Below are positions 29,010 to 34,075 of a stretch of DNA of 64,000 nucleotides, piece by piece (position 1 is the first letter of the stretch; every line of letters starts with the position of its first letter). The stretch is taken from the NCBI GenBank assembly GCA_963772455.1, contig CAVYXJ010000006.1, positions 23,721-87,720 of the forward strand, in the 5' to 3' direction. The notes under the pieces are model-generated. The model was not told the DNA's origin and made no database searches. It saw nothing but the letters and a program-made list of their open reading frames with translations. Both the position numbers and the translations under genes were made by a program. The DNA comes from Candidatus Bathyarchaeota archaeon. Its GTDB lineage: Archaea > Thermoproteota > Bathyarchaeia > Bathyarchaeales > Bathycorpusculaceae.

Positions 29010-29922
29010 GTGAAAGACCAAAACTTTCACATAGAATCAACTAACCTGAAGGCGGATATGGGAAATCTTGTTTTAGAAACATACGGAGCAATATTCAAAG
29101 TTCTAAGGTTTATGGTGTCATCTTCAATTCTTTTAGCTTTAAATGGAGTTATGGTAGTAGTTTTTGGCTTTTTTTTAGACAGCGCCACAATTGTGCCTCC
29201 TTTACTTTTCGCAGCATTTCTAGTTACCTTTGCAGTTTACGGTTTAAACAAATTCACCGATAAGGCTGAAGATTCAATCAACCGACCTGAAACTTTGCCA
29301 AGAGCCTCAGGTTATTATTTGGTTTTCTCTATCGTGTCAATGATAATTGGTTTTTTGATAGGTCTATTAGAAAGTATTTTGGCTTTCTTTGTTCTTTGTG
29401 CTCCCGTCATGATTGGCGTGATTTATAGTGTAAGAATTTCAAAATCAATCCCAAGGCTCAAAGAGATTGTAGGCGTCAAAAGCCTTGTAGTTGCAGTAAG
29501 CTGGGCTTTAACAGGTTGTCTTTTGCCTGATTCTTTTTCCACGGCTAAACTTCAGGTAATTGTTATTGTTTTTGTTTATATTTTTATTCGAGTATTTGTA
29601 GGCACGATCCTGTGCGACGTCTTGGATACGAAGGGTGATTTAGCAACAAGAGTAGAAACAATACCTATAAGGTTGGGAAGAAACAAAACCAAAAAGCTCT
29701 TAATTACTTCTAAACAGCCTTGGAATTCTTTTGCCAATCTATTGCGAGGCAACTGGAATACTCATTCGTTTCGTGCCTGCGCTACTATTTGGAGTTTTAT
29801 ATGGATATTTGGCAATTTGGTTTTTCTTTAAGAATAACTGCAAAAGGTTTACTGCAGGGTTAATTTTAGATGGCGAATGGATTCCCATAGTCATCATCAT
29901 TTTCTTACTTATCAGATTATAA
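29010..29922 (+). CDS. UbiA family prenyltransferase (indel near 29710)
   Basis: NKFTDKAEDSINRP and DVLDTKGD...VETIP Asp-rich motifs; multi-TM. Confidence 0.88.
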
Positions 29923-30316: not shown

Positions 30317-30643
30317 CTAATGTAGGGCAGCGTAATATAGGGCTCGATTTTTTAATTCAATGTTCAAAGGTGGCAGATCATGTTTTAACAATATATTATT
30401 TAGAAGCAGTCGTCCGACTCTGCCATTGCCATCTTGGAAAGGGTGAACAACTTCAAACTGGTTATGAACTACAGCCAGCCAAAACAAGAGGCGAGCACAT
30501 TGTTCTGTTTTTGTTATACCATTCGCACCAAGTTCTTTAAGCAATGAGTTAATTTGTTGTGATGGAGCTCCCGATGAATAATATTTCCCAAGGCATCCGC
30601 AACCATTCTCCACAACCTTTGCATTCACGGAAATCTCCAGCAA
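30317..30643 (-). pseudogene. Fic/Doc family fragment
   Basis: HPFQDGNGRVGR Fic motif; N-terminal part missing. Confidence 0.8.
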
Positions 30644-31460: not shown

Positions 31461-31538
31461 TGGTGGGCCGAGCCGGATTCGGACCGGCGACCTTCTGCAC
31501 GTCAAGCAGATGTCCTAACCAGGCTAGACGACCGGCCC
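31461..31538 (-). tRNA. tRNA-Val(GAC), CCA encoded
   Basis: Reverse complement GGGCCGG TCGTCTAGCCTGGTTAGGAC A TCTGC TTGACGT GCAGA AGGTC GCCGG TCCGAAT CCGGC TCGGCCC A CCA folds as a cloverleaf. Confidence 0.95.
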
Positions 31539-31703: not shown

Positions 31704-32954
31704 ATGGTTGCAACCGACGAAGTATTATCGCTACTAGTCGAATTCATAAACAAAAATTCTAACGTCGTCGACATCCAATGGGACCGCAGAATGAGCCCAC
31801 GCCTAATAGTTAACCCTTACTCAGAAAAATATGAAGAAAGACAAACCGTAGCTCACTATCTCCTATTGGCGGCATCAATTCTTGACGATACCGTAGTAGG
31901 TTATCCAGAAAATGCTCGAATGTTAATGGTTTATTTACATGAGGCTTTTGGCAGCAACTTTTTTGAAATTAAAAAAGCACATCTGTTTGAAGAAGAAATA
32001 GTGAAAGCTGATTTTTATCATGATTTAGGTCCAAACAAAAAAGCTGCATCAGAAATCTTAGCCCAAATTAATTTGTTCGTTAAATATAAAGCAGAAAAAA
32101 ACTTGCTAAAGTATGCTCAAAAATTCACTAAACCCAAAGACTTCATCGATGATATGGCACAAAACGTTGTTGCTCTCAGTGGACCGCACAAGGATCGCGC
32201 TTGGATTTATCTACGGTGGATGGTGCGTCCTTCGCCTGATCTTCAAATCTATGATCATCTCTTGCCTGAAGATCTCTATGTTCCTTTAACCAAAGAGAAT
32301 GCTAACGTAGCAGCTAGCTTAGGAATAATAAATTCTGCTTCACCTAGCCTTTGGCGCGATGAGAAAACAGAGGCAGAAGCACGCCAAAAATTAACTGATT
32401 TTGCAAAACGACTCTTTCCAAAAGACCCTGCAAAAGTTGATTATCCATTCTTTCTTTTAGGCAGATGGCTAAAACAAAAAACCCTAAACCGTTACACACT
32501 AAAAACAGCTCTCGACTTCCTTGATCGTATGCAAAAAATCACTGGGCAATCCCAAGCTTATTACCAAAAAATGAGTCGCTACAAAAGCGGGTGGGAAAAG
32601 AAAACTGCCCTGACTCTTTTGAGAATGCATATTCCCTTTGGTTATGAAACCATTAGTTTTCCTTTACCAAATGAAGTTTATACTCCAGATTTTATTTTGG
32701 AAAAAACTGTTAATGGCAGAAAAATTATTCTTGAACCACACTTTGAAATGACTAAGCATCAAGCCCGAAAATATGCACTTTTCAAACGCACCTACGGTCA
32801 CAAATTTCTATTAATCTTAGTCCTCAAAAACGATTTGATATCAATGTATCATCAGCGCAAAATATTAACTGACGATGTTTGCGATGACGTTTGGCCTATT
32901 GAATTTGTTCATCTATTAGCAGAGAAGATAAGACGTGGAACCTACGGGCAATAA
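31704..32954 (+). CDS. DUF2400 (HhH glycosylase-like) domain fused to a T7 endonuclease I-like PD-(D/E)xK domain
   Basis: YLRWMVR..PDL, L.VPL, FPKDPAKVDYPFFLLG; then YKSGWE...IPFGYE...YTPDF.L...IILEPH. Confidence 0.75.
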   Translation: MVATDEVLSLLVEFINKNSNVVDIQWDRRMSPRLIVNPYSEKYEERQTVAHYLLLAASILDDTVVGYPENARMLMVYLHEAFGSNFFEIKKAHLFEEEIVKADFYHDLGPNKKAASEILAQINLFVKYKAEKNLLKYAQKFTKPKDFIDDMAQNVVALSGPHKDRAWIYLRWMVRPSPDLQIYDHLLPEDLYVPLTKENANVAASLGIINSASPSLWRDEKTEAEARQKLTDFAKRLFPKDPAKVDYPFFLLGRWLKQKTLNRYTLKTALDFLDRMQKITGQSQAYYQKMSRYKSGWEKKTALTLLRMHIPFGYETISFPLPNEVYTPDFILEKTVNGRKIILEPHFEMTKHQARKYALFKRTYGHKFLLILVLKNDLISMYHQRKILTDDVCDDVWPIEFVHLLAEKIRRGTYGQ

Positions 32955-32995: not shown

Positions 32996-33364
32996 GTGAT
33001 GGAGCAGGACAACTTCAAATCATTAGTAGTTTGGCTTATTCTTAACGGAAAACCAGAGGAAGCTCTTGAAATATTGTCAAAAAAATACCAAGTTAAAGTT
33101 CCCAATTTGAAAGTGGGATTACCCAAAGGACACAAAATAACCGCATACGGCTGCTATGCATCTAAAAACCAGACAATCACCGTTCTAAACAGCGATGTAT
33201 TAGTCAATCCGTTTGTTATCATTCACGAATTCTACCATCACATTCGAAGCAAATCTGTTGATAGAATGCATAAAGGAACCGAAAAAGGCGCTGACAAATT
33301 TGCGCTCGACTTTATAGCGGAGTATCAAGAATTCGCTAAAAAAATTCAAAAAAACAATCAGTAA
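32996..33364 (+). CDS. Small HExxH zinc metallopeptidase-like protein
   Basis: G.Y......I strand, IIHEFYHH, downstream E..AD.FA. Confidence 0.75.
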   Translation: MMEQDNFKSLVVWLILNGKPEEALEILSKKYQVKVPNLKVGLPKGHKITAYGCYASKNQTITVLNSDVLVNPFVIIHEFYHHIRSKSVDRMHKGTEKGADKFALDFIAEYQEFAKKIQKNNQ

Positions 33365-33777
33365 AAATCTTCATCTTCACATTCCAAAGCAGCAGTCACT
33401 TCAATAGGCACCTTATCCCCGTTTGAATCATAGGCTGCTATGCAGCTTTTTCCCTCATATGGGTAACCTACAATCATGAGAATGCGGCCAAAAAAATAAT
33501 TTAAATCTGTATCGCTTGGCGAATTGTTGCCGGTTGGATGTGAATGCACGGTTCCAACAATTGAGAAATCTCCAGCAAACATGTATGGGTTAAAGTGGAC
33601 TGCGCCTTCTTCATGAGCAGCAAACGGAGCTAGAACTAAATCTGTTACACTAATGATGCCTTTGCTTTTTTTACCACGAAGTAGCAAGAAGCTTTCGCGT
33701 GGATAAAGTTCTTTGGCGCCTGCATATATGGCATCTAAAATGTTGCTTGGAATATTCACAGTTAATGCTGCTTTCAT
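33358..33777 (-). CDS. JAB/MPN+ (JAMM) metalloprotease
   Basis: YPRE and GTVHSHPTGNNSPSDTD (E...HxH-x7-S-x2-D). Confidence 0.92.
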   Translation of the reverse strand: MKAALTVNIPSNILDAIYAGAKELYPRESFLLLRGKKSKGIISVTDLVLAPFAAHEEGAVHFNPYMFAGDFSIVGTVHSHPTGNNSPSDTDLNYFFGRILMIVGYPYEGKSCIAAYDSNGDKVPIEVTAALECEDEDFY

Positions 33778-33946: not shown

Positions 33947-34031
33947 GCCGAGGTGGCAGAGTGGTTAACGCGCGGGCCTTGAGAGCCCGTGGAACATCCG
34001 TTCCGCATGGGTTCGAATCCCATCCTCGGCG
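33947..34031 (+). tRNA. tRNA-Ser(TGA)
   Basis: GCCGAGG acceptor stem, CGGGC-CTTGAGA-GCCCG anticodon arm, long variable arm, GGTTCGAATCC; CCA not encoded. Confidence 0.95.
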
Positions 34032-34075
34032 CTCTTTTACTGAAAATATATGCCGTTTTTCTTTATAAATTTAGT

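Follow-up and report, generated by a model that had tools for sequence, protein, structure and literature searches.

What might a protein do in which a DNA glycosylase-like domain, apparently deprived of its catalytic residues, is joined to a nuclease domain? The question is raised by a gene located at positions 31704 to 32954 of a 64,000-nucleotide stretch of DNA from a Candidatus Bathyarchaeota archaeon (contig CAVYXJ010000006.1 of assembly GCA_963772455.1), which we refer to as the window. An earlier, sequence-only reading had described the product as a degenerate DUF2400 domain fused to a T7 endonuclease I-like nuclease and had proposed a dead base reader that targets the nuclease to damaged or modified DNA. 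At the level of the architecture the profile searches and structural models support this proposal, as both domain assignments and the loss of a catalytic Asp and Lys are consistent with it.

The gene and its product

The open reading frame (ORF) was found as it had been described: it is intact, starts with ATG and encodes 416 amino acids. The motifs on which the reading was built were all located by residue: LRWMVR at 170, PDL at 178, PLTKE at 194, DPAKVDYP at 241 and LLGRW at 251 in the N-terminal part, and SGWEKK at 295, FGYE at 312, YTPDF at 326 and LEPH at 343 in the C-terminal part. The full-length protein was modeled with a predicted local distance difference test score (pLDDT) of 92.3 and a predicted template modeling score of 0.84. 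The features of the gene are listed below with their coordinates in the window and the basis of each assignment.

31704..32954, + strand: whole gene, a DUF2400-type HhH-GPD domain, a linker helix and a T7 endonuclease I-like nuclease domain (416 amino acids plus stop, ATG start)
31704..32489, + strand: residues 1-262, all-helical domain of the HhH-GPD superfamily (DUF2400), predicted to be catalytically inactive (Pfam, fold matches)
32172..32231, + strand: residues 157-176 (ALSGPHKDRAWIYLRWMVRP), HhH-like hairpin and helix (hhalign, residue conservation)
32289..32291, + strand: Thr196 (ACC) at the position of the HhH-GPD catalytic Asp, where the family motif is P-L/V-D-x-N/H (alignments)
32490..32579, + strand: linker, residues 263-292, a helix and then a loop of low confidence (pLDDT <50 at residues 285-291; model)
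32580..32951, + strand: residues 293-416, PD-(D/E)xK domain related to T7 endonuclease I (profile, model)
32595-32597, 32688-32690, 32733-32735 and 32739-32741, + strand: E298, D329, E344 and H346, putative active site (alignment, conservation)

A fusion of this kind could be an indel artifact, and the check for one came out against it: of the 24 other genomes of the genus, 23 have an open full-length frame, and in the 24th the frame is divided over two contigs. Counts by genome locus cover 57 loci, and the orthologous rows used below comprise the window plus 56 loci (57 rows). The frame is unbroken at 52 of the 57 loci; the breaks at the other five (L054 and L062-L065) could be assembly errors or decay.

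The N-terminal domain

The Pfam family DUF2400 (PF09674) matched residues 128-253 (E 4.5e-12, 46.9 bits, cut-off 25), although the match spans only profile positions 101-223 of 225. The equivalog cut-off of TIGR02757 was missed (44.9 bits against 139.2). Judged by these profile scores the protein is a member of a divergent DUF2400 subfamily that passes the Pfam cut-off but not the equivalog one. DUF2400 was matched in 15/15 fused forms. The other glycosylase families of Pfam, including PF00730 and PF21790, gave no match to the protein at E values up to 1; the PF00730 model does find the two canonical HhH-GPD genes of the host genome. When the DUF2400 profile was compared with the sequences in the PDB only designed helical bundles were recovered (E 0.02 or worse), and the tie to known glycosylases is therefore seen only by fold and by hhalign.

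The fold matches of residues 3-275, obtained with VIA-align, were led by Qng1/DUF2419 (7ulc_A, Z 16.0, 234 residues aligned, root-mean-square deviation (rmsd) 3.6), the Ogg of M. jannaschii (3knt_C, Z 15.8, 196 of 205 residues aligned, rmsd 2.9) and EndoIII (1orn_A, Z 13.6, 195 aligned, rmsd 3.2), with MutY (Z about 12) and Mag2 (4hsb_A, Z 11.2) following. Foldseek concurs on an HhH-GPD glycosylase fold with a probability of 1.00. The modeled domain thus has the two-lobed all-helical fold with a central helix-hairpin-helix (HhH) that defines the superfamily, at Z 13.6-16.0 over 195-235 residues, and the HhH-GPD assignment made from the sequence was borne out by a confident model. In an alignment with 26 relatives, of which 25 are stand-alone proteins that carry the catalytic Asp (Asp-type) and one (P0140) is a truncated form with Ser in its place, R171, W172, R175, D179, L191, P194, D241 and D246 are invariant.

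Loss of the catalytic residues

The catalytic Asp of the HhH-GPD glycosylases had been said to be missing from the protein, and the alignments agree. Column 196 is occupied by Asp in at least 90% of the rows of the 26-relative alignment and by Thr in the query. The same column fell on the catalytic Asp in three hhalign runs, whose targets were the EndoIII of the host genome (IDTH), its OGG1-like protein (PVDVW) and an alignment of 25 EndoIII sequences (VDTH). The last of these runs extended over 160 columns and also set the column of residue 164 on the EndoIII Lys, with 'arKK' over 'aRKT'. This column is near-invariant Lys in the 26-relative alignment, and the query has Asp164 where the Asp-type relatives have Lys. 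The protein reads PLTKE and HKDR in place of the family motif P-L/V-D-x-N/H and the R-K-K that precedes it. The Lys of the HhH motif in HhH-GPD glycosylases serves as the nucleophile or as a ribose-positioning residue. Both of the residues expected of an HhH-GPD enzyme, the catalytic Asp (Thr196) and the HhH-motif Lys (Asp164), are therefore replaced in the query, and Thr196 is found in 57/57 orthologous rows.

According to the paper that describes Qng1, this Asp and this Lys are the sole residues invariant between Qng1 and the HhH DNA glycosylases. The spacing given there for Qng1, from K199 to D231, equals the 32 residues that separate positions 164 and 196 in the query and in Asp-type DUF2400 proteins. 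The hhalign statistics are weak, so that the residue equivalences rest on the agreement between comparisons together with the similarity of fold. The loss of the HhH Lys along with the Asp strengthens the idea of a dead reader, and we infer that the N-terminal domain retains the whole HhH-GPD/DUF2400 fold and most of the invariant residues while being catalytically dead.

The C-terminal nuclease domain

A parallel between the C-terminus and T7 endonuclease I had been drawn by eye, and it was confirmed by a profile of 21 C-terminal domain sequences. Compared with the PDB, this profile retrieved T7 endonuclease I only, as four distinct sequences with a best E value of 2.4e-8 (1m0d_A). The alignment places E298, P328-D329 and E344-x-H346 over the E, PD and E-x-K of the phage enzyme, so that the three acidic residues are kept and His346 stands at the position of the Lys. 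The corresponding Pfam family, Phage_endo_I (PF05367), matched residues 285-364 below its threshold (E 0.0011, 19 bits, gathering cut-off 29.1); the score was 21.5 bits with the domain alone and 26.2 for the best family member. Matches to this family, all under the cut-off, were obtained for 6/21 C-terminal domain proteins and 6/15 fused proteins, and it is the sole nuclease family that Pfam gives for more than one member.

Modeled alone, the C-terminal domain reached a pLDDT of 93.9 and showed the alpha-beta-beta-beta-alpha-beta core of the PD-(D/E)xK fold, in agreement with the assignment made from the sequence. Its fold matches were Bax1 (Z 8.6, 109 residues aligned, rmsd 3.4), VC1899 (8.4), Can2 (8.4), PspGI (7.9), I-Bth0305I (7.6) and Vsr (6.5), and Foldseek gave probabilities of 0.98-1.00 against Bax1, Can2 and PspGI. 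T7 endonuclease I ranks 50th by Foldseek. The Z values are modest and generic to the fold, and what links the domain to T7 endonuclease I in particular is sequence, not structure.

The putative active site is well conserved. Across the nuclease domains E344 was found in 44/44, H346 in 42/44, D329 in 39/43 and E298 in 39/40, and all four residues are present in 53/53 aligned orthologous rows. The canonical Lys (E-x-K) occurs in a single relative, P0258, which carries five NUMOD3 motifs and resembles homing endonucleases. Another group (P0237, P0243, P0254, P0263 and P0267) combines the E-x-H nuclease domain with a conserved 'KFSGSG' N-terminus and with C-terminal CxxC pairs that resemble zinc ribbons.

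The DUF2400 family and its two types

A HMMER search of 1.84 billion representative proteins returned 176 relatives at E values up to 0.001. They are of four kinds: fused proteins of 390-490 amino acids, proteins with the N-terminal domain only (about 250-300 amino acids), proteins with the C-terminal domain only (120-180 amino acids), and C-terminal domains combined with other parts. In an alignment of the 150 representatives listed, anchored on the query, position 196 was covered in 76, with Asp in 46 and Thr or Ser in 30. Position 164 is Lys in 43/46 of the Asp-type proteins; of the 25 Thr/Ser-type proteins aligned there, three have Lys and 16 have Glu or Asp. Position 198, Glu in the query, is N or H in 46/46 of the Asp-type, and neither is among the six commonest residues of the Thr/Ser-type, which account for 26/30.

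The nuclease domain follows the same division. It was found in none of the 46 Asp-type proteins, 39 of which extend to the end of the N-terminal domain, and in 17 of the 21 Thr/Ser-type proteins that extend that far; of the remaining four, three are fragments and the fourth, P0127, ends in a different C-terminus. Loss of Lys164 thus accompanies the presence of the nuclease. In a maximum-likelihood tree of 47 N-terminal domains (26 Asp-type and 21 Thr/Ser-type) the Thr/Ser proteins form one clade, with a Shimodaira-Hasegawa-like approximate likelihood ratio (SH-aLRT) support of 96, and the loss of the chemistry and the gain of the nuclease consequently count as one event. The outcome has been retained in at least three deep sub-clades, over long branches. 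Among the orthologs the median ratio of nonsynonymous to synonymous substitution rates (dN/dS) was about 0.05 for the N-terminal and about 0.02 for the C-terminal domain, with synonymous changes saturated and many pairs dropped; estimated in this way, both domains are under purifying selection.

About 10/26 of the aligned relatives, all stand-alone Asp-type proteins (P0176, P0185, P0195, P0203, P0212, P0229 and P0239-P0242), have a C-terminal Cys cluster, and the hhalign run against the EndoIII of the host genome sets this cluster on the Fe-S loop of EndoIII. DUF2400 proper may accordingly be a family of Fe-S HhH DNA glycosylases. In P0148 and P0152 an Asp-type DUF2400 domain stands behind an N-terminal DUF6884 domain, another uncharacterized architecture.

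Comparison with known systems

The fusion had been thought to be without a description. This holds for the exact pair of domains, as the literature searched contained no report of DUF2400 joined to a T7 endonuclease I-like nuclease, and for the DUF2400/TIGR02757 family it contained no relevant paper, one unrelated mention of DUF2400 aside. It does not hold for the architecture. A 2025 preprint (Yee et al., bioRxiv 2025, PMC12191111) describes END nucleases, in which PLD or 'NucS-like' PD-DExK nucleases are fused to an inactivated EndoIII/Ogg-like sensor. END nucleases were tested there as antiphage systems and restrict phages with hypermodified DNA; END-Mag (MDV2503288.1), a metagenomic PD-DExK member, targets phages with modified G, and END-PaCF1 was aligned to PF21790 and EndoIII (PMC12191111).

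As far as the preprint describes them, the END nucleases resemble the Bathyarchaeota protein in being a single polypeptide in which an HhH glycosylase-fold domain without catalytic residues is combined with a nuclease and no partner methyltransferase. The query has both elements, its nuclease retaining conserved active-site residues with the caveat of a His in place of the Lys. END-Mag pairs a PD-DExK nuclease with a sensor nearest to archaeal Ogg, and the Ogg structures that the same source cites for it (3FHG and those of M. jannaschii and T. maritima) are of the three proteins ranked just below Qng1 for the N-terminal domain of the query. There are also differences. The sensor of the query belongs to the DUF2400 clade and that of the preprint is described as EndoIII/Ogg-like; it is N-terminal in the query and C-terminal in the END nucleases; and the query nuclease, with its E-x-H, is of the T7 endonuclease I kind, where the END nucleases have a PLD or 'NucS-like' one. 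The host of the query, furthermore, is an archaeon, and the gene is found throughout its genus. END-Mag was not among the members listed for 20 clusters; if it belongs to this family, the novelty of the protein is reduced to that of a further member of a tested family.

The other relatives are similar in one domain at a time. Stand-alone DUF2400/TIGR02757 proteins share R171, W172, R175, D179, P194, D241 and D246 with the query, but have Lys164, Asp196, N/H198 and often the C-terminal Cys cluster where the query has Asp164, Thr196, Glu198 and a nuclease domain. T7 endonuclease I (PF05367; PDB 1m0d, 1fzr and 2pfj) aligns at S-G-x-E, F-x-Y-E, Y-T-P-D-F and E-x-(K/H), and differs in its catalytic Lys, which is His in 42/44 members of the query family. 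T7 endonuclease I is a domain-swapped, intertwined obligate homodimer, whereas the query domain is modeled as a self-contained monomer fused to a reader domain. The best folds for the N-terminal domain, Qng1/DUF2419, a queuosine-5'-monophosphate glycosylase, and archaeal Ogg (Ogg2), are only 11-13% identical to it; the beta-hairpin insertions of Qng1 are lacking in the query model, and both catalytic residues are lacking in the query. Mag2 of S. pombe (4hsb) is a glycosylase homologue of HhH-GPD fold that has no glycosylase activity and binds damaged DNA. Like the query it lacks the catalytic Asp; unlike the query it is eukaryotic and without a nuclease domain.

Distribution and homologous loci

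In a sample of the genus the gene was present in 24/24 genomes, and in another count in 14/14, at one chromosomal place. Above the genus it is found in 13/91 genomes and 8/70 genera of the family, 35/301 genomes and 11/107 genera of the class, and 16/401 genomes and 4/161 genera of the phylum. The question whether the gene is core or patchy, which had been posed with the original proposal, has therefore a double answer: core within the genus and patchy above it. The fused form also occurs among proteins from metagenome-assembled genomes (MAGs) of Nitrososphaerales, where it is annotated merely as 'DUF2400 family protein', and stand-alone Asp-type forms were seen in other Bathyarchaeia genera (L131 and L132). 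A metagenome scan returned close orthologs only, 69-97% identical, among the best 80 of 396 matches, and no new contexts for distant members. An 82% identical ortholog of the archaeal gene lies on a contig whose title names a Limnocylindrales bacterium MAG (L046); the contig is likely mis-binned. Among 2.9 million viral contigs there were 15 pattern matches, none of which encodes a relative, and a viral origin was rejected on this ground. A search for RNA runs listed none, and every DNA run that it did list shares 0.20 or less of the sampled words.

A paralog 33-35% identical to the gene was found in 7/24 genomes of the genus. In two of the seven it is split into two overlapping frames (L070 6518-7868 and L071 6235-7585), which could be pseudogenization or an assembly error. 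The neighbors of the paralogs include a PD-(D/E)xK plus superfamily 1 (SF1) helicase protein and a HerA-like ATPase. The former, at L069 1889-6241, is a protein of 1450 amino acids with AAA_11/AAA_12 helicase domains, encoded on the same strand 34 bases upstream of the paralog start.

A fused homolog in another family (L126, 35% identical, of the f24 subgroup) is located about 1.3-2.2 kb from genes for BrxL and a DUF499/HmaC-like ATPase and from a weakly PglZ-like ORF (E 2.7e-4), with PIN and RHH genes nearby. This neighborhood (L126 8909-13730, G222:C31) looks like a partial BREX-like island.

Proposed role and alternatives

We propose that the protein acts as a two-module DNA endonuclease. 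The N-terminal module would bind to DNA, with a flipped non-canonical base held in place and its glycosidic bond left uncut, given that Asp164 replaces the HhH Lys and Thr196 the catalytic Asp. The C-terminal module would supply the metal-binding acidic residues E298, D329 and E344 together with His346, and the backbone would presumably be hydrolyzed near the recognized base. Its role may be an END-type, type IV-like restriction of viral DNA that contains hypermodified bases. By analogy with the END nucleases, we judge the chances of a base-reader-guided nuclease with this antiviral role to be evenly balanced. When restriction is set against repair, the antiviral role is ranked most likely and lesion-directed repair incision is the main alternative; the accessory-like distribution above the genus, the paralogs, the fused forms in Nitrososphaerales and the defense genes next to L126 count for the former.

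Several observations weigh against an antiviral base reader. The sequence link between DUF2400 and EndoIII is weak, with a best hhalign E value of 1.4e-3 and a probability of 17%, and the division into Asp and Thr/Ser proteins reflects one evolutionary event and not many independent ones. His is unusual at the Lys position of PD-(D/E)xK enzymes, and its compatibility with catalysis could not be demonstrated. Presence throughout the genus at one place is more typical of a housekeeping than of a defense gene, and the base composition of the gene is that of its surroundings (GC content 0.378 against 0.388 for the window). Defense neighbors were found at one of the five loci of the distant f24 subgroup, the other four contigs being short, the neighborhoods of the paralogs consist mostly of housekeeping genes, and no PADLOC model was matched by the query protein.

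Some of these observations would fit the same architecture in a repair role, in which the dead domain finds base damage or an abasic site in the manner of S. pombe Mag2 and the nuclease nicks alongside it. The gene is syntenic and genus-wide and is under strong purifying selection, Mag2 is among the fold matches, and the stand-alone Asp-type relatives, with their Cys clusters, resemble genuine glycosylases. In the host genome, moreover, no Xth was found and Nfo was matched only under its cut-off. Yet for a repair enzyme the gene is distributed narrowly and patchily, the host's own EndoIII and OGG1-like enzyme both have the Lys and the Asp intact, the paralogs decay, and no complementarity with Xth (TIGR00633) was seen; we regard repair as a doubtful but serious candidate. 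The stronger version of the idea, that the gene founded a housekeeping incision-repair pathway in Bathyarchaeia, patchy in other archaea, with the dead glycosylase as its lesion-recognition part, seems to us rather unlikely. If true, damaged bases would be cleared by incision of the backbone instead of excision of the base, by an E-D-E-H active site derived from T7 endonuclease I. The exonuclease III family TIGR00633 was undetected in 89/91 genomes of this Bathyarchaeia family, with or without the fusion, and complementarity between the fusion and this apurinic/apyrimidinic endonuclease was set aside as uninformative.

The N-terminal domain might instead read no DNA base at all, being a sensor of free nucleotides, as in CARF-Can2, or a non-specific DNA handle for a junction or branch nuclease. 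Qng1, its best fold match, binds queuosine-5'-monophosphate, the ligand-activated nucleases Can2, Card1 and Cdn1 are among the fold matches of the C-terminal domain, and the closest sequence relative of that domain is a junction-resolving enzyme. We consider this improbable, however: the beta-hairpin insertions by which the Qng1 paper distinguishes Qng1 from DNA glycosylases are all missing from the model, residues 1-290 are predicted to contain no strand, and the model overlays archaeal Ogg over nearly its entire length. In addition, R171 and R175, which give the HhH helix its positive charge, are invariant, the host genome has Hjc for junction resolution, and the matches to PD-(D/E)xK folds are of a generic kind, none exceeding Z 8.6. 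It is highly improbable, in our view, that both domains are inactive and the protein is a DNA-binding or regulatory factor only, as the His at the signature Lys position and the sub-threshold Phage_endo_I matches might suggest. E298, D329, E344 and H346 are kept over clades that are 30-40% identical, the pattern of an active site, and the Lys-bearing P0258, related to homing endonucleases through its NUMOD3 motifs, shows continuity with canonical nucleases.

Should the protein be an END-type nuclease guided by a base reader, the END principle would extend to archaea, with a third sensor lineage (DUF2400) and a third type of nuclease. DUF2400/TIGR02757 would receive an assignment, the Asp-type proteins as HhH glycosylases with the Lys-Asp pair of EndoIII and Qng1 and the Thr/Ser-type as readers, and the family would offer an example of neofunctionalization in which one clade shed its catalytic residues, acquired a nuclease domain and retained both states. 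Such readers could serve to map modified bases. One may speculate that 7-deazaguanine DNA modifications would be the first candidate substrate, given how close the fold is to that of Qng1, which binds queuosine.

Genomic context

The setting of the gene between two tRNA genes with toxin-antitoxin genes nearby, as it had been reported from the sequence, was recovered: a PIN_3 gene and a Fic fragment adjoin the two tRNAs. The features next to the gene are the following.

31461..31538, - strand: tRNA-Val (GAC), upstream border of a conserved block, also upstream in L009, L023 and L043
32996..33364, + strand: ORF of 122 amino acids with an HExxH motif (IIHEFYHH), 41 bases past the stop of the gene and on the same strand, a candidate operon partner
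33358..33777, - strand: convergent Prok-JAB (MPN metalloprotease-like) gene (Pfam PF14464, E 9.3e-13)
33947..34032, + strand: tRNA-Ser (TGA), the downstream limit of this block; past it the gene content varies by genome

The HExxH ORF had no Pfam match at E values up to 10; a weak lead came from the atlas, in which Peptidase_M78 occurs in 10% of one cluster (score 0.92). It lies beside 54/57 of the genome loci, and the Prok-JAB gene beside 52/57. Both are missing at 13/24 further ortholog loci, most of them 58-67% identical, and at all seven paralogs and five f24 homologs. Given these absences a functional link with the gene was rejected and the arrangement is read as inherited synteny. On either side of the two tRNAs the genes vary from genome to genome, and the window's PIN, AIRS and ECF genes were detected at 0/57 genome loci. 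Both the Fic ORF (30317-30643, - strand, 108 amino acids), which covers only profile positions 33-93 of 93, and the UbiA ORF (29010-29831, + strand), which covers positions 3-192 of 250, appear to be truncated, so that the region upstream of the tRNA-Val may be a variable one in decay. As for the HExxH and Prok-JAB genes, a metalloprotease-like pair beside a DNA-binding nuclease, they might be a regulatory or processing pair.

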